IMG/VR virus record: IMGVR_UViG_2778261064_000007
DNA: 7,433 nt
DNA from: a virus
Lineage: Duplodnaviria > Heunggongvirae > Uroviricota > Caudoviricetes
Direction: 5' to 3' (one strand)
Shown here: positions 1-6,112 of the stretch, in pieces
Layout: every line of letters starts with the position of its first letter
Position numbering within the stretch: the stretch's first letter is position 1
Program-made: the position numbers and the translations under genes
Notes under the pieces: model-generated
What the model saw: the letters and a program-made list of their open reading frames with translations, nothing else
Database searches by the model: none
Told to the model about the DNA's origin: nothing

Positions 1-177
1 ATCACATCCGGTTGGGCTACCGACCTGGCGCTGGGCATTCTCAGTGATGAAGAAAAAGAAAAACTGAAAGTCTGGCGTATTTACGCAAAGGAATTGCAGT
101 CGATGGATTTCAGTACAATTGCAGACAAGACTGCTTACGACAATATTGACTGGCCGGAGCAGCCACAAAATACCTGA
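1..177 (+). CDS. Tail fiber assembly protein (Tfa-like), C-terminal fragment; 5' end lies outside the window
   Basis: Frame 1 is open from position 1 to the TGA at 175-177 and translates to ...SDEEKEKLKVWRIYAKELQSMDFSTIADKTAYDNIDWPEQPQNT. The pattern (acidic stretch, W-x2-Y, VD/MD, I-D/E-W-P-x-x-P at the extreme C-terminus) matches the C-terminal motif I recall for lambda Tfa (...[27 protein letters not shown]). Position just upstream of the sheath gene matches P2 gene G order (H-G-FI). Assignment from memory, not a search. Confidence 0.6.
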   Translation: MTSGWATDLALGILSDEEKEKLKVWRIYAKELQSMDFSTIADKTAYDNIDWPEQPQNT

Positions 178-195
178 AAAAGAAATGAATCATCT

Positions 196-218
196 GACCG
201 CCTGAGGGCGGTTTTTTT
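196..218 (+). terminator. Intrinsic-terminator-like hairpin (stem ACCGCC / GGCGGT, loop TGAG) followed by T7 tract
   Basis: Seen directly: 197-202 ACCGCC pairs with 207-212 GGCGGT, loop 203-206, T-run 212-218. Located 19 nt after the tfa stop and immediately before the sheath RBS (GGGAG 221-225). Confidence 0.6.
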
Positions 219-231
219 ATGGGAGAAATGT

Positions 232-1707
232 ATGTCCGGACTACATGGTGTTGAAACCATTGAACTGACGACAGGCACGGTTGCCGTGCAGACCATCTCC
301 ACTGCAGTGATTGGCCTGGTGGGGACAGCGCCGGGCGCCTCTGGTGGCGTGTGCGCTTCCGGCACCGCCGGCTCCTGGCTGCTGGGAACGGCGCTGGATT
401 TCACGGCGAAACTGGAAGGTCGGGCCGGTAATAAGATTTCGGTGGTTGCCGTCGCTGCCACAGAACAAAACGCGCAGACAGTGGCATCGCTGGAAGGCAC
501 AACCCTGACGATAACGCTGGGGACGGACGAACACAGCCAGGTTAACGCCACGGTGGACTGTGTGACTGAAGCGGTGAATGCGCTGGGGGATTCGCCTGTG
601 ACGGCGGCTGTCAGCTCCCTGAATGCAGGAGGCGCTGAAAATAATGTGGTGTCGCCGTTCAGCCTGACGTTATCCGGCGGGGAAGATGAGGCGTTCCCGG
701 TCAATACACCGGTGGTGGTGGCAGGGGCCATTACTCAGGCAGGGAAACTGGGTACAGCCGGAACATTATACCCGGCCCTGCGAGATATTTTTGACCAGAC
801 TGGTGCGCTGGTGATTGTGGTGCGCGCAGAAAGTAAAACAAAGGCGAAAGAGGCCGAACAGCGTGCGGCGGTGATTCAGGCCATGGAGGCGCTGACAGAA
901 AGTAAGGGCGTGACAGGCTATCAACCGCGCATCCTCATTGCCACGGGGTACAGTGAGGATGATGGCGTGGCAAAGGCGCTGGAAACGTATGCCGTGAAGC
1001 TGCGGGCTGTGGCCTATATTGACTCGCCTTCAATGGCAACGCCGCAGGATGTGGTTCAGCGGCGCGCGTCATTTGGCGGGCGTGTGGAGCTGCTGCGTCC
1101 GCGCGTGTCTGTGACGGATGACAGCGGGCAGACGATATTTCGTCCATATTCGGCCCGTGCTGCCGGGCTGCGGGCCCGTATTGATTACGAAAAAGGGTGG
1201 TGGTGGTCCAAATCAAACCAGGATGTGATGAATATCACCGGTCTGGAGCAGGTGGACACATTTATTCTCGGAGAGCAGAACTGCACGGCAAACCTGCTGA
1301 ACATGGAAAATATCTCCACCATTATTCGCCATGACGGTTTTAAACACTGGGGTAACCGTCTGTGCACATCCCACAGTCAGTGGCGTTTTGAGCCGGTACG
1401 CCGCACTGCAGATGTGATTGAGGACAGCATCCAGGAGGCCATGCTGCCTTATGTCGATCGCCCGCTTGATCGGGATGTGGCAGACGACATTCTTGGCAGC
1501 ATTAATGCCTATATGCGTCAGCTTAAAAATCTGGGCGCGATCCACGGTGGCAGTGCATGGCTGAACGATGAACTGAACACTGCAGAAACCCTGGCAGCAG
1601 GGCAGTTGTATATTGATTATGACTTTGGGCCGAAGTCACCACTGGAGCGCCTGACACTGCGGGCAATGATTAACAATAAACTGGCGCTGGAGGAACTGAC
1701 AGTATGA
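232..1707 (+). CDS. FI: Contractile tail sheath protein (P2 gpFI family), 491 aa
   Basis: Complete ORF with ATG at 232 and RBS GGGAG 6 nt upstream. The N-terminus (HGVETIELTTGTVAVQTISTAVIGLVGTA) and C-terminus (RHDGFKHWGNR...ETLAAGQLYIDYDFGPKSPLERLTLRA) resemble the P2 FI sheath as I recall it (...LIRRDGFRFWGNR...[27 protein letters not shown]). Followed by a tube-sized gene as in P2. Confidence 0.92.
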   Translation: MSGLHGVETIELTTGTVAVQTISTAVIGLVGTAPGASGGVCASGTAGSWLLGTALDFTAKLEGRAGNKISVVAVAATEQNAQTVASLEGTTLTITLGTDEHSQVNATVDCVTEAVNALGDSPVTAAVSSLNAGGAENNVVSPFSLTLSGGEDEAFPVNTPVVVAGAITQAGKLGTAGTLYPALRDIFDQTGALVIVVRAESKTKAKEAEQRAAVIQAMEALTESKGVTGYQPRILIATGYSEDDGVAKALETYAVKLRAVAYIDSPSMATPQDVVQRRASFGGRVELLRPRVSVTDDSGQTIFRPYSARAAGLRARIDYEKGWWWSKSNQDVMNITGLEQVDTFILGEQNCTANLLNMENISTIIRHDGFKHWGNRLCTSHSQWRFEPVRRTADVIEDSIQEAMLPYVDRPLDRDVADDILGSINAYMRQLKNLGAIHGGSAWLNDELNTAETLAAGQLYIDYDFGPKSPLERLTLRAMINNKLALEELTV

Positions 1708-2222
1708 TGACGGGTGAAAAAAAACTGTTGCGCGCATGGGCGTTATTTCTTCCTGGCGGGATCCGCCTTCAGGGTGCGCATGAATACACGCCGCCTGCCA
1801 TTAATATCACGACAGTGGATATCAAAACCGGCGCAATGGATGCACCGGTGGCAGTGGATGACGGCATGGAAGCGCTGACCTGTTCGTTTAAGATTTATGG
1901 CTATGATGTTGCCATGCTGACGCTGCTGGGATTACAGGCCGGGCTTTATTCGCCGGAGATTGTTGTGCGCCAGGGCTATCAGGTGGGGAATGCGACCAGC
2001 GGACAGGTGGAAACCCTGCAGGGGATGATCACCAGCATCACGCCGGATGCACGTCCGGCAACATCGCAGGCAGACGCCTCGGTGACGGTGGAAATGTCGC
2101 TGAGTTATTACCGCCAGGCTGTCGACGGTGTGGAAACCATCTGCATTATTCCGGAGGAGTTTGTACGTCGTATTAATGGCGTTAATGTTCTGGCGGATCT
2201 GAAAAAAATCATCCGGGTTTAA
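1704..2222 (+). CDS. FII: Tail tube protein (P2 gpFII family), 172 aa
   Basis: ORF start ATG 1704 overlaps the sheath stop (ATGA, 1704-1707), with a second in-frame ATG at 1707. RBS GGAGGA at 1690-1695. Length 172 aa equals the size I recall for P2 FII; position directly after the sheath gene. Sequence similarity itself not verified. Confidence 0.88.
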   Translation: MMTGEKKLLRAWALFLPGGIRLQGAHEYTPPAINITTVDIKTGAMDAPVAVDDGMEALTCSFKIYGYDVAMLTLLGLQAGLYSPEIVVRQGYQVGNATSGQVETLQGMITSITPDARPATSQADASVTVEMSLSYYRQAVDGVETICIIPEEFVRRINGVNVLADLKKIIRV

Positions 2223-2579: not shown

Positions 2580-2716
2580 TGGCGATACGGCGTGCCGGTG
2601 TCTGGTTCGGGTGGTCACCCGGAGATGTGATGGCACTGCCGTATGAGGATTTTGTGGCAATAATGCTGGCAGAGGCGGAAGAGAGGAAGCAGTGTTATGG
2701 CAACGGTGGGCGATAA
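2277..2716 (+). CDS. Predicted E+E' frameshift fusion (tail assembly chaperone, ~146 aa); joins zero frame 2277-2542 to -1 frame 2543-2716
   Basis: Translating the -1 frame from 2543 gives AAAGPAEEENILMAIRRAGVWFGWSPGDVMALPYEDFVAIMLAEAEERKQCYGNGGR* with stop at 2714-2716. The extension overlaps the tape measure start (2697), as E' overlaps T in P2. Predicted size is close to the ~142 aa I recall for P2 E+E'. Confidence 0.65.
2536..2543 (+). other. Predicted -1 programmed ribosomal frameshift site (slippery T-run ending in G, heptamer T_TTT_TTG)
   Basis: Seen directly: G2535 then T2536-T2542 then G2543. Zero-frame codons are GTT-TTT-TTG (V-F-L). The -1 frame is open from 2543 to the TAA at 2714-2716. 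The same heptamer at the same relative position is the reported P2 E/E' shift site (established knowledge). Confidence 0.7.
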
Positions 2717-4349
2717 CCTCAGAGCGAATATCCGGATCGGCGGCACGATAGATCCGTCGTGGAAAAATTCTGTTAATGGCCTGAAAAAGGGCCTTTCCGG
2801 AGCCACGCGTGAAGTGGCTCGTCTGACACGCCAGCAGGACGTACTGAAACGAAAAATCCAGGCTGGCGTACTGGCAGGACAGGATATTACCGATCTGCGA
2901 AAGCAGTATGAAAAGCTGGGTAAAAAAATCCATGATGCCACCGCTGAGCAGGACAGATTTAACCGTGAACTGGCGCGTGCGGAACGTCTGGCTCGCTGGA
3001 AAGGGCGTGGAATGACTGCCCTGAAAGTGGGGGGCGAGCTTTCAGTCGGGGCAGGACTGACACTGGCAGGCGCTGCAGGTGCAGCACTTAGCCGGAACAG
3101 TGAAACGGCGGAGCGGGCAGGGATCGCCCGCAGTTACGGAGTGGATTATGAAACCTATGCGGCGTGGGATTCTCTGGCCCGACTGATGGGGCTGAACGGT
3201 GAAAACATCGGTGATCTGTTTGAGGAGTACCGGAACAAGGTTTTTGACGATGGTAATGGTGCCACGGATAAAGGGGCCATTCAGGAGGTCTTTGGCAAAC
3301 TGGGACTGAAAGCCGGGGTGATGGCAGGGAAAAGTAACCAGGAGCAGGTCGAATTTTTATTTGATCGCTTACTGCAGGTAGAGAATGAACAGGTGGCAGC
3401 CGGGATGGCAGATGCGTTGTTTGGTGGTGAGGCCAATAAAATTCTGACCTGGATGCGTCTGTCAGGAAAAACTTACCGGGAGCTTATCAGTGAGCAGAAA
3501 CGCTATAACCTGGTGACAAAGGCAGGGGCAGATGGCGCAGTTCAGGGGCATATGGCGCTGTCAAATCTCAGTAATGTTCTGAGTTCGTCCATTGATGAAA
3601 TCAGCGGGCAACTGGGTAAGGAGCTGGCACCACATATTCAACAGGTGACGGATGACCTTGCGGCCTGGTTTAAGAATGGTGGACTGGAAAAAATCCGGGC
3701 ATTTATTCGTGATGATGCCCTGCCGGCGCTGATCGACTTGGCTGCCTGGATGTGGAAATTTGGAAAAGTTCTTGCCGGAATTACACAAAAAGCCATTGAG
3801 TGGGGGCTGGCGGATGATCCGCGAGAGGACCGACGGGAAGTGCTGGAGTATCTGGCAAAAATGGGGTCGCCGGAGCTGGCGAGAGTAGTGGCGCAGAAAA
3901 ACGGTCAGGGTGAATGGTTTGATGAACTGCTCAGGCAAAATCCTGACCTGACAAAACAGGTTGTACAGGCCTATAAAGACACCCGCGGTTATCTCCCCTG
4001 GAATCATGACGATAAAAAGTTTGATGCATTTCTCGACCCTTTGCTGGGACCGAAGGAAGAACCTGATTTTAAGGCGATAAAAGAGAAATCCCGCACCTAC
4101 ATTGACGGACTTCCTGCGGCTGGTCAGGGACAGGAAAATCCTGATCGCCTTTCAGCTCTCCAGTATACACCCGGCAGTATCAGCCAGGTGGAAGTAAAAC
4201 CCACGTATCAGATACGGGCGGAATTCAACATTACCCAGAAACCTGGCGAGGATGCCGGACAACTTGCAGACAGGGTGATGAAAAATCTGGGGGATATTAA
4301 TTTTGGCCAGCGTTCCCGTATGACTGATGGTTATGAATCCTGGGGGTGA
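2697..4349 (+). CDS. T: Tail tape measure protein (P2 gpT analog), 550 aa
   Basis: Complete ORF, ATG 2697 with GAGAGGAAG RBS upstream. Position is immediately after E/E'. Translation has a long predicted helical, charged N-terminal half (LKRKIQAGVLAGQDITDLRKQYEKLGKKIHDATAEQDRFNRELARAERLARW) and Gly/Ala hydrophobic segment (GGELSVGAGLTLAGAAGAAL) typical of tape measure proteins. Confidence 0.85.
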   Translation: MATVGDNLRANIRIGGTIDPSWKNSVNGLKKGLSGATREVARLTRQQDVLKRKIQAGVLAGQDITDLRKQYEKLGKKIHDATAEQDRFNRELARAERLARWKGRGMTALKVGGELSVGAGLTLAGAAGAALSRNSETAERAGIARSYGVDYETYAAWDSLARLMGLNGENIGDLFEEYRNKVFDDGNGATDKGAIQEVFGKLGLKAGVMAGKSNQEQVEFLFDRLLQVENEQVAAGMADALFGGEANKILTWMRLSGKTYRELISEQKRYNLVTKAGADGAVQGHMALSNLSNVLSSSIDEISGQLGKELAPHIQQVTDDLAAWFKNGGLEKIRAFIRDDALPALIDLAAWMWKFGKVLAGITQKAIEWGLADDPREDRREVLEYLAKMGSPELARVVAQKNGQGEWFDELLRQNPDLTKQVVQAYKDTRGYLPWNHDDKKFDAFLDPLLGPKEEPDFKAIKEKSRTYIDGLPAAGQGQENPDRLSALQYTPGSISQVEVKPTYQIRAEFNITQKPGEDAGQLADRVMKNLGDINFGQRSRMTDGYESWG

Positions 4350-4840
4350 AGATGGTGGATTTACTGGGCTGGGGCGTAAACCGGCTTGAGCGCGAAGCAT
4401 GGGACGCAGTGGGCTCATTAACGGAGGTGGCTTCCCGCGTCATGCTGTCGTTTGGTGAGTTTGAATTCAGTATCGATACGGCAGCGTATAACGCCATGAA
4501 GCGCACCATGGAATGGCGGTGGGATGAACAACAGCTTATCGGAAAAAACGACCTGCTGCAGTATACCGGTAAGGGGGCCAGAACGATAACCTTTGAAGGT
4601 ATGGTGCATGCGGGATTTCGTGACGGTGTGGGAATGGATGCCCTTGATACACTGGTTCAGATGGTGGATGACAATCCGGCCCCGCATCTTCTGGTCTCGG
4701 GCACAGGTGATGTGATGGGGTATTTCGTGGCAACAGCCTATTCAGATAACACCACCTCCTTTCTTCCCGGCGGTGCGCCAAAGAATAAAACGTTCACTCT
4801 GGAGCTGAAATACTATGGCGAAAAACTGGCGGACCACTGA
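4346..4840 (+). CDS. U: Tail protein gpU family (tail tube terminator/initiator-type protein), ~162-164 aa
   Basis: ORF-track start 4346 is a GTG that overlaps the T stop (TGA 4347-4349). An in-frame ATG at 4352 with GGGGG 5 nt upstream may be the true start. Position between tape measure and X/D as in phiCTX and R-type pyocin loci. Sequence pattern (...FEFSIDT...TFEGMV...GYFV...) is consistent with the gpU family from memory. Confidence 0.82.
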   Translation: MKMVDLLGWGVNRLEREAWDAVGSLTEVASRVMLSFGEFEFSIDTAAYNAMKRTMEWRWDEQQLIGKNDLLQYTGKGARTITFEGMVHAGFRDGVGMDALDTLVQMVDDNPAPHLLVSGTGDVMGYFVATAYSDNTTSFLPGGAPKNKTFTLELKYYGEKLADH

Positions 4841-5033
4841 CGGCGATATGCTGGATGACATCTGTCAGAGGCACTATGGCAGTGCCGGGCTTAACCAGTC
4901 ACTGGCGGCGGTACTGGAGGCTAATCCGGGGCTGGCTGACCTTGGTCCGGTCTATCCGGCGGGAGTGGAAATCGTGTTGCCGGACTGGGTATATGAACCG
5001 GAAGTGAAGGAGACGTTTCAGTTATGGGAGTGA
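4815..5033 (+). CDS. X: Tail protein X (P2 gpX family, LysM-like), 72 aa
   Basis: Translation MAKNWRTTDGDMLDDICQRHYGSAGLNQSLAAVLEANPGLADLGPVYPAGVEIVLPDWVYEPEVKETFQLWE closely matches the P2 gpX sequence as I recall it (GDTLDAICVRYYG...VLAANPGLAELG...LPD...LWE). Overlaps the U stop by 26 nt. Confidence 0.9.
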   Translation: MAKNWRTTDGDMLDDICQRHYGSAGLNQSLAAVLEANPGLADLGPVYPAGVEIVLPDWVYEPEVKETFQLWE

Positions 5034-6112
5034 ATGAGTATCAGCCGGATTTCAGTCTGACAGCGGAAGGTCAGGATATCACGAAGGAAATAAAACGAGG
5101 TCTGGCTGAGCTGCGATATACCGATAATGGTGCTGGCACAAAGCGGTCCGATGAACTGATGATAACGCTGTTCAGTGAGACGCTGGCGTTGCCCCCGAAA
5201 GGCGCGGTGCTAACGCTGGGACTGGGGTTCAACGGAAATCTGGTAAATAAAGGCAGCTTTACCGTCTGTCAGGTGGCAAGTGGTGGCCCTCCCCGCCGGA
5301 TCACTATTTATGCCACCGCAGCCCCCATGAATGCGTCAAAACATGGCGCGGACGTGACCGCACTGAAAACCCGCGCTTTCAGTGATATCTCGCTGGGAGA
5401 TCTGGTAAAAACCATCGCCACTGAAAATAATCTGGTGGCGCAGGTATCACCGGCGCTGGCTGGTATTCATATCCCGTGGGTGATGCAGTCATCAGAATCT
5501 GATGCAGCCCTCCTGTCCCGCATTGCAGGTATGTACGGTGCCACCAGTAAACCGACCAGTGGCTACTGGTTGTTTCTGGAATACGGGGCATCACGGAGTG
5601 CAGGGGGCAGAAATGCCCCTGAGATAACCATTACGCCGGGTATGGTATCAGACTGGGATTATCGTGAAGGTGAGCGACAGGGCGCTGCGGGTGGCGGGAA
5701 AGATGGGAAAGTGGGTGTCCGGTATTTTGATGCCCGTGACGGACGCACACGTGAAGTTAAAGTTGACGTGGAGTCAACAGATAAGCGGCATCCCTTTACC
5801 CAGCCTGACCAGGGCACCGCAAAACACTGTGCAGAGTCGAAGGTTAAACGTGTGCAGAAAGCCGGACGCCAGATGACGATAACGTTGCCCTGCAGACCGG
5901 AACTGCTGAAAGCGGGGGCGGAGGTGCGTTTTATCACGCAGGGATTTGGTGTGCGTGAGGACCATTACTGGCAGGCTGAATCGGTGGAGTTTTCACTGGC
6001 ACCGGGGCAGGGATTTTCGCTGAATCTGTCGCTGACCACGGATATTTCCGCGAAAGGACAGGCATCAGGGAAGAAGAACGCGGATAAAAAAGGTGTCAAT
6101 TATTACGGTTAA
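5024..6112 (+). CDS. D: Tail protein gpD family (P2 late gene D product; baseplate hub/spike-associated, distantly related to VgrG N-terminal region), 362 aa
   Basis: Complete ORF, ATG 5024 with AAGGAG at 5007-5012, overlapping the X stop by 10 nt. Size and position after U-X match phiCTX/R-pyocin order. Motif resemblance (LTLGLGF, RPELLKAGAEV, DHYWQAESVEFSL) is from memory only. Confidence 0.82.
   Translation: MGVNEYQPDFSLTAEGQDITKEIKRGLAELRYTDNGAGTKRSDELMITLFSETLALPPKGAVLTLGLGFNGNLVNKGSFTVCQVASGGPPRRITIYATAAPMNASKHGADVTALKTRAFSDISLGDLVKTIATENNLVAQVSPALAGIHIPWVMQSSESDAALLSRIAGMYGATSKPTSGYWLFLEYGASRSAGGRNAPEITITPGMVSDWDYREGERQGAAGGGKDGKVGVRYFDARDGRTREVKVDVESTDKRHPFTQPDQGTAKHCAESKVKRVQKAGRQMTITLPCRPELLKAGAEVRFITQGFGVREDHYWQAESVEFSLAPGQGFSLNLSLTTDISAKGQASGKKNADKKGVNYYG

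Follow-up and report, generated by a model that had tools for sequence, protein, structure and literature searches.

A P2-like tail sheath protein with one additional domain near its N-terminus

The tail sheath protein encoded by virus record IMGVR_UViG_2778261064_000007 (Caudoviricetes), on the 7,433-nucleotide (nt) stretch of DNA analysed here (the window), is longer than the sheaths of phage P2 and the R-pyocins, and the locus raises the question of where the additional length lies, what it folds into, how widely it occurs and what it may contribute to a contractile tail. Extra sheath domains are the main way in which contractile tails depart from the minimal pyocin machine, and to our knowledge no such domain has an experimentally defined function. 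An earlier note on this DNA, made from the letters alone, had proposed that ~100 residues are inserted between two conserved segments of the sheath, VIGLVGTA and EAFPVNTPVVV, as a discrete, beta-rich and possibly immunoglobulin-like (Ig-like) domain. The open reading frame (ORF) on which that proposal was built (232..1707, + strand, 491 amino acids [aa]) and the peptide quoted from it, TLTITLGTDEHSQVNATVDCVTEAVNALGDSPVTAAV, were both recovered as described.

Assignment of the product as a sheath was supported by Pfam models Phage_sheath_1 (PF04984, 55.8 bits against a cut-off of 31.4) and Phage_sheath_1C (PF17482, 61.2 bits against a cut-off of 26.9) and by a match to the tail sheath family phrog_23 (E 5e-108). 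The reference P2-type FI (KC618326) is 396 aa long, which is the length given for the P2-type sheath by Evseev et al. 2022 (PMC9230969) and agrees with the figure of about 396 aa given in the earlier note. BLASTP comparison of the window sheath with this FI returned two collinear blocks: window aa 5-36 aligned to FI 6-37 at 47% identity, including VIGLVGTA, and aa 146-483 aligned to FI 33-384 at 37% identity (E 2e-65), opening at EAFPVNTPVVV. Residues 34-381 of the R-pyocin sheath PA0622 (3j9q, 386 aa) aligned to window aa 147-487 (E 1.4e-52). Since the FI blocks are collinear and the PA0622 alignment agrees with them, the extra length of 95 residues forms a single block and is not dispersed. 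The stretch without counterpart in P2 FI or PA0622 comprises ~109 residues (aa ~37-145, nt ~340-666), between the two segments that had been named; the span first proposed, 337-675 (aa 36-148), was thus essentially right, and the alignments to P2 FI and an R-pyocin sheath that the note had called for put the added residues in one place.

The protein was accordingly divided into three parts, all on the + strand: an N-terminal arm and conserved strand (aa 1-36, 232..339), the inserted accessory domain (aa ~37-145, 340..666; profile and model boundaries aa 31-150, nt 322-681), and, from the PA0622 and P2 FI alignments, a conserved sheath core (aa 146-491, 667..1704) made up of the protrusion and handshake domains and the C-terminal arm. 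The domain is spliced in after the N-terminal strand or linker (aa ~36) and before the first core strand, EAFPVNTPVVV. Column entropy of the arm (aa 1-36) was low among 75 homologues, and by homology to the pyocin structures (PMC8195476) this segment would be a linker or strand of the inter-subunit handshake mesh. The 491-aa sheath is therefore the minimal pyocin/P2 architecture plus one globular domain of ~110 residues. As a separate observation, one E. coli protein (P0004, 462 aa) is 91% identical to the window sheath and has a 29-residue deletion in the core around TESKGVTGYQPRILIATGYSEDDGVAK (window aa 220-248), which could mark a defective allele or stem from faulty annotation.

The fold of the inserted block was predicted with AlphaFold2 (AF2), using an alignment of 75 homologues for the whole sheath and 36 sequences for the domain alone (aa 31-150). 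In the whole-sheath model the predicted local distance difference test score (pLDDT) was above 90 for aa ~31-140, and aa ~31-145 formed a compact, separate unit; modelled alone, the domain had a mean pLDDT of 92.5 and a predicted template modelling score (pTM) of 0.83. Low scores were confined to aa 1-23 (pLDDT below 50), aa 375-392, aa 467-472 and the last ~30 residues, as expected for arms and loops that would become ordered only in the polymer. The predicted fold combines about 8 strands with a 10-residue helix (108-117) and one short helix, which makes it mixed alpha/beta and not an all-beta sandwich of the Ig-like, FN3 or Big type. The models thus describe a discrete and confidently folded alpha/beta domain: the idea of a discrete unit stood, and that of an Ig-like fold was not borne out by either structure prediction or fold search.

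Searches for known relatives of this fold were conducted at several levels. Foldseek with the whole model returned the pyocin R2 sheath as the best match (E 1e-24, template modelling score 0.74 on the target, about 348 columns), covering the core only; for the domain itself, the nearest structural relatives were sheaths with extra domains, and structurally similar domains occur in Firmicutes and archaeal sheaths. A fold search of BFVD matched only uncharacterised phage proteins. Pfam scanning of aa 31-151 at E<=10 gave nothing beyond a chance-level match to DUF6297 (E 0.11), and PF17481 (Phage_sheath_domII) did not match this segment at the same threshold, although the same model touched two distant members of the domain family described below (P0150, E 1.5e-4; P0137, E 0.2), both below its cut-off. 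The domain profile matched no PDB sequence even at E<=10. The presence of this domain explains why current sheath models cover proteins of ~490 aa only in part.

The domain is not peculiar to this locus. Of the top 120 database homologues, which span many genera of Enterobacterales, nearly all are 484-528 aa long (the rest being a few fragments and one protein of 542 aa) and almost all have full-length identities of 56% or more; hundreds of Enterobacterales prophages encode sheaths with this domain at the corresponding position. The insert profile also matched the same place (aa ~31-150) in the sheaths of six other phages (E 1e-11 to 5e-45), namely Hafnia yong2, Vibrio Valp1, E. coli vB_EcoM-569R10, Stutzerimonas ZRG1, Acidithiobacillus AcaML1 and Aliivibrio H905, and the sheath of Citrobacter Chris1 matched by tblastn. 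With the insert alone as query against 50,697 phage records, tblastn found only yong2 and Chris1; the domains of Valp1, AcaML1, ZRG1, H905 and 569R10 were detected by the profile search and not by tblastn. P2-like sheaths of ~490-505 aa in the 50% representative protein set likewise carry a single copy at aa ~30-150. A large, old clade of P2-like sheaths therefore shares the domain. The earlier note had allowed that the extra length might be common to a sheath subfamily without forming a discrete domain; the survey of homologues confirmed the first half of this, and the models spoke against the second.

Some sheaths of the same broad P2-like clade reach a similar length by another route. The sheaths of Jilinvirus ep3 (L004:8983-10410), Klebsiella KA2-1 (L006:78-1754) and Xanthomonas Foxunavirus M29 (L005:42-1514), of ~475-560 aa, are also longer than P2 FI by one inserted block, but lack the domain at the N-terminal site. 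Their own insert consists of 1-3 tandem GxGYTxAPTVxxxGG units (about 80-160 aa) placed after PRILxxPGF, at a position corresponding to window aa ~243 (nt ~960). Because ep3-type sheaths carry this other insert at a second site, P2-like sheaths have at least two insertion hot spots. Two candidate equivalences were rejected on these grounds: ep3, ECOO78 and others, which appeared in tblastn as full-length homologues (coverage 99%), owe this to a stretched alignment, the multiple alignment showing the other insert elsewhere; and the type 2 label applied to ep3 by Evseev et al. does not extend to the domain described here, the ep3 insert differing in both sequence and site.

Relationships among the cores were examined in a midpoint-rooted neighbour-joining tree of 11 taxa built from 361 ungapped core columns. 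The ep3-type sheaths nested among the domain-bearing ones; their cores are 43% identical to that of the window and 63-68% identical to that of ZRG1, and the domain-bearing ZRG1 is itself closer to ep3 (68%) than to the window (43%). Because of this nesting, the domain must have been lost or replaced on at least one occasion. The contrast with P2 and the pyocin may reflect gain in the window lineage or loss on their side. On the latter reading the domain would be ancestral to P2-like sheaths and would have been lost by P2, phiCTX and the R-pyocins, leaving the minimal sheath as a derived form. Such a history is possible but rather doubtful. It would account for the scatter of the domain-bearing sheaths (window, yong2, 569R10, Valp1, AcaML1, ZRG1 and H905), which do not form one clade apart in the core-only tree, and for the structurally similar domains found in Firmicutes and archaeal sheaths. 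The root of so small a tree is uncertain, P2 FI being an outlier in it; the domain family is mobile and found in unrelated proteins, which makes independent gain plausible; and in the published analysis (PMC9230969) the one-domain form is the core and further domains are additions to it.

The reach of the domain beyond sheaths was assessed with hmmsearch over 1.84 billion representative proteins, using the insert profile as query; 586 proteins matched at E<=1e-3, 78 of them at E<=1e-10, and the proteins bearing it were then named by PHROGs, NCBIfam and Pfam. In addition to the P2-like sheaths, a DUF3383/phrog_205-type sheath (P0139) has two copies, and phrog_8757 proteins ("virion structural protein", ~700-1050 aa; P0121, P0122, P0124, P0126, P0129 and others) have 3-6 tandem copies. 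The remaining classes are flagellar: FlgL (P0145, P0146 and P0137; TIGR02550, 164-208 bits in the three proteins, cut-off 127.2), FlgK (P0165; TIGR02492, 324 bits, cut-off 170.75), FlgE (P0161 and P0184; the FlgEFG model TIGR03506, 293-300 bits, cut-off 70.25, with Pfam FlgE_D2 above cut-off), FliD (P0261; Pfam FliD_N and FliD_C above their cut-offs) and giant flagellins of Bryobacteraceae (P0125 and its cluster mates), the last with ten or more copies. The NCBIfam models specific to FlgE and FliD scored below their cut-offs. In the flagellar proteins the copies (2 to >10) sit in variable regions between the conserved terminal domains. Unlike the single copy inside the window sheath, the phrog_8757 and flagellar proteins are non-sheaths with 2 to >10 tandem copies.

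Profile matches were full-length across the family, with whole-protein E-values of about 1e-7 to 1e-42. Because instances from all classes align on one pattern (L-x-F-T-A...G-x-x-G-N-x-I-x-V...I-T-V-x-L-A-T-D-x-x-G...T-A-x-x-V...V-T-A...G-x-V...L-x-G-G), the matches between classes reflect sequence homology and not composition. No Pfam model covers the domain segments of the flagellar or phrog_8757 proteins, no Pfam or NCBIfam model was found for the family, and no solved structure was detectable by sequence. The phrog_8757 proteins have no Pfam match at all and share a conserved N-terminus (..FL.IADRLAAQY..) and C-terminus (..VERxISL); their genes were located at loci L003 and L014:10001-12142, the latter in phage-like surroundings, where a Phage_tube_2 gene follows 2.5 kb downstream. 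It is a real, if tentative, possibility that the insert belongs to a large, unnamed, horizontally mobile family that has been grafted repeatedly onto the variable regions of unrelated helical polymers, these being the sheaths of contractile tails (P2-like and DUF3383 types at the least), virion proteins of phages with multiple repeats, FlgE of the flagellar hook, FlgK and FlgL of the junction, FliD of the cap, and giant flagellins. Phage tails and flagella would in that case share a pool of filament-coating modules with a common biophysical role such as lattice stabilisation, surface chemistry or adhesion; if confirmed structurally, the family would merit a Pfam entry and would point to exchange of modules between tails and flagella.

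Variation within the sheath was examined next to its architecture. Column entropy across homologues was 1.5-2.3 in the insert versus 0.1-1.0 in the core, and some homologues carry extra loops of +12 to +51 aa inside the domain, a degree of variability as expected for an exposed accessory domain. Selection was estimated by a crude Nei-Gojobori count between the window and the corresponding allele of the 98%-identical prophage of E. coli RM9088, taking the proportions of synonymous (pS) and nonsynonymous (pN) differences. The insert (aa 37-145) gave pS 0.145 and pN 0.042 (pN/pS 0.29), and the core (aa 146-491) pS 0.043 and pN 0.0013 (pN/pS 0.03). The domain is thus under purifying selection, about ten-fold more relaxed than that on the core, and a ratio of 0.29 gives no support to positive or diversifying selection. 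Divergence from the RM9088 prophage was concentrated in window positions 1-700, 2200-2800 and 6600-7200 (5-10%, against <1% elsewhere), which suggests patchwise recombination among related prophages. The first of these tracts begins in the upstream fibre-assembly gene, stops at the end of the insert and carries raised synonymous divergence.

We consider that the domain is probably an accessory module on the outer surface of the sheath, for which a passive role is the most likely. By analogy with other contractile systems it would sit atop the protrusion domain, away from the tube and the handshake mesh, and, because of that placement, would be carried as a rigid body during contraction, outside the contraction mechanism. 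As a further layer on the outside, it could stabilise or shield the sheath through lateral contacts, in its metastable extended state and possibly also when contracted; weak adhesion to surface polymers is a secondary possibility. Several points weigh against this reading. The outward orientation is argued from published structures and surveys (PMC8195476, PMC9230969) and from the variability of the domain, and any contribution that it would make to stability or adhesion is inferred. Part of the raised divergence of the insert is due to the recombination tract at nt 1-700 and not to the domain itself, and the strong diversifying selection that might be expected of a host-interacting surface is opposed by a pN/pS below 1.

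The same placement could serve adhesion directly. Exposed along the tail in roughly a hundred or more copies, the domain would bind glycans of the cell surface or the environment weakly and so raise the rate of host encounter, as has been proposed for the Ig-like decoration domains found on phage capsids and tails. Its relatives in flagellar variable regions and in multi-copy virion repeats, and its own variability and tolerance of insertions, are in keeping with such a role, and adsorption is among the possible roles of extra sheath domains listed by Evseev et al. (PMC9230969). Against this, Pfam and fold searches gave no likeness to a lectin, carbohydrate-binding or Ig-like fold, pN/pS is 0.29 and not above 1, conservation shows no pocket-like motif beyond structural Gly, Asn and Leu positions, and the phage already encodes two tail-fibre systems; adhesion as the main function is therefore judged unlikely.

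Those two fibre systems, one P2 H-like and upstream, the other lambdoid Stf-like and downstream of gpD, would suit a domain acting as a docking platform for another part of the virion, such as stowed tail fibres or a separate sheath-decoration protein, and the tract of divergence that begins in the adjacent fibre-assembly gene does stop at the end of the insert. This case is purely circumstantial. Phages with domain-bearing sheaths differ in their fibre sets (yong2, Valp1 and AcaML1) and we know of no consistently co-occurring partner gene, so that docking seems improbable. Finally, an artefact or non-sheath element (an intein, a gene fusion, an assembly error or a low-complexity spacer) might be suspected from a composition rich in A, T, V, S and G and from a BLAST low-complexity filter that leaves tblastn matches in two phages, but it is effectively refuted by a single uninterrupted ORF that is 97-98% identical in many complete E. 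coli genomes, by the confident predicted fold, by full-length profile matches with conserved motif positions across many protein families, and by the finding of no Pfam family on the segment at E<=10, intein families included.

Within a P2-like contractile-tail module, the window spans the distal half. The sheath gene lies upstream of the tail tube gene (1704..2222, + strand, 172 aa; Pfam Phage_tube FII, E 1.9e-23), the start of which overlaps the sheath stop codon (ATGA), and is followed by genes for an E-type tail chaperone (2271-2579), the tape measure (2697-4349, 550 aa), gpU (4346-4840), gpX (4815-5033) and gpD (5024-6112) and by the 5' part of a tail-fibre gene (6137 onward) that leaves the window end. 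This is the context of a sheath of the P2/R-pyocin type. Clear Pfam matches were obtained to Phage_tube, Phage_TAC_7, Phage_P2_GpU and Phage_tail_X, and a weak one to GPD; RefSeq annotation of the RM9088 prophage agrees with the tail gene context. Prophages in complete E. coli chromosomes match the window from end to end at 97-98% identity, and at least 80% of it was present in 74 of 5,426 genomes. In E. coli RM9088 (L013, 1399742-1431176) the tail module comes after a lambda-like head module and P2-like baseplate genes, and the prophage is of an Enterobacterales type that combines a lambda-like head with a P2-like contractile tail. The head module comprises terminase, portal, S49 peptidase, head decoration protein, major capsid protein and gpFI packaging protein, and the prophage lies beside the yciEFG-trp locus and a truncated ompW. 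In Hafnia phage yong2 a similar set of genes is arranged in another order: its baseplate J and I and fibre genes lie downstream of the D-like gene, whereas in prophages of the window type they lie upstream of the sheath.

Further features were noted in the genes downstream. A T_TTT_TTG slippery heptamer occurs at 2537-2543, close to the end of the E-type chaperone ORF, and the -1 frame is open from there to about nt 2720 as judged by eye; RefSeq has a separate small ORF at this place in RM9088. The E gene of P2 is expressed as E and E+E' by programmed frameshifting, and the heptamer looks like a conserved instance of that arrangement. No Pfam family matched the 550-aa tape-measure protein; P2 gpT is ~815 aa long, and this difference in length predicts a tail noticeably shorter than that of P2. 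The tail-fibre ORF (6137-7433) directly follows gpD and is open through all 432 codons before it exits the window. Its centre is rich in Ala, Gln and Glu, which accounts for a strong A-over-T skew at 6500-7250. At the DNA level it is 78-85% identical to tail-fibre genes of Rac-SA53, phiP27 and an Actinobacillus phage, and by this measure it is a mosaic joint; it also constitutes a second fibre system beside the upstream P2 H-like fibre. The RM9088 counterpart carries a frameshift and is truncated, and an IS66-family element follows it directly.

Sheaths with extra domains are already well described, and the window sheath is a member of the P2/pyocin family with a type 2 architecture, the AF2 models showing a main part and one compact added domain as in the scheme of Evseev et al. 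2022. The pyocin sheath subunit consists of a handshake domain, which forms the mesh, and a protrusion domain, and other contractile systems retain these and add one or two domains on the protrusion domain (PMC8195476). In a survey of 112 modelled sheaths the additional domains lay away from the tube-contacting part and were proposed to act in stability or adsorption, and all Peduovirinae sheaths were modelled as one-domain (PMC9230969); phiCD508 gp55 has three domains, of which domain I adjoins the tube. For the extra-domain sheaths phiCD508 gp55 (9gb1), DSY3957 (3hxl) and that of Halogeometricum borinquense (9ezm), sequence identity was only 11-22%. Mu gpL (495 aa) is of similar length and two-domain, type 2 in the same survey (PMC9230969), but was rejected as a source of the domain (BLASTP against the window sheath E 0.67; hhalign probability of the insert profile against Mu L 0.1%), and a weak match to phrog_279 (E 0.002) was not substantiated. 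As far as could be found, this particular domain at this site had not been described previously. The closest known systems remain PA0622 (3j9q, 6u5b) and P2 gpFI, minimal handshake-plus-protrusion sheaths of 386 and 396 aa against the 491 aa found here, with which the window shares its gene order (sheath, tube, E/E+E', T, U, X, D), a core homologous end to end and a conserved N-terminal strand and C-terminal region, and from which it differs by the ~110-residue domain between that strand and the first core strand. With just one added domain and a clean splice point, this P2-like sheath offers a simple system for testing what such domains do; the domain-less P2 and pyocin sheaths, and ep3 with a different domain at another site, are its natural comparators.

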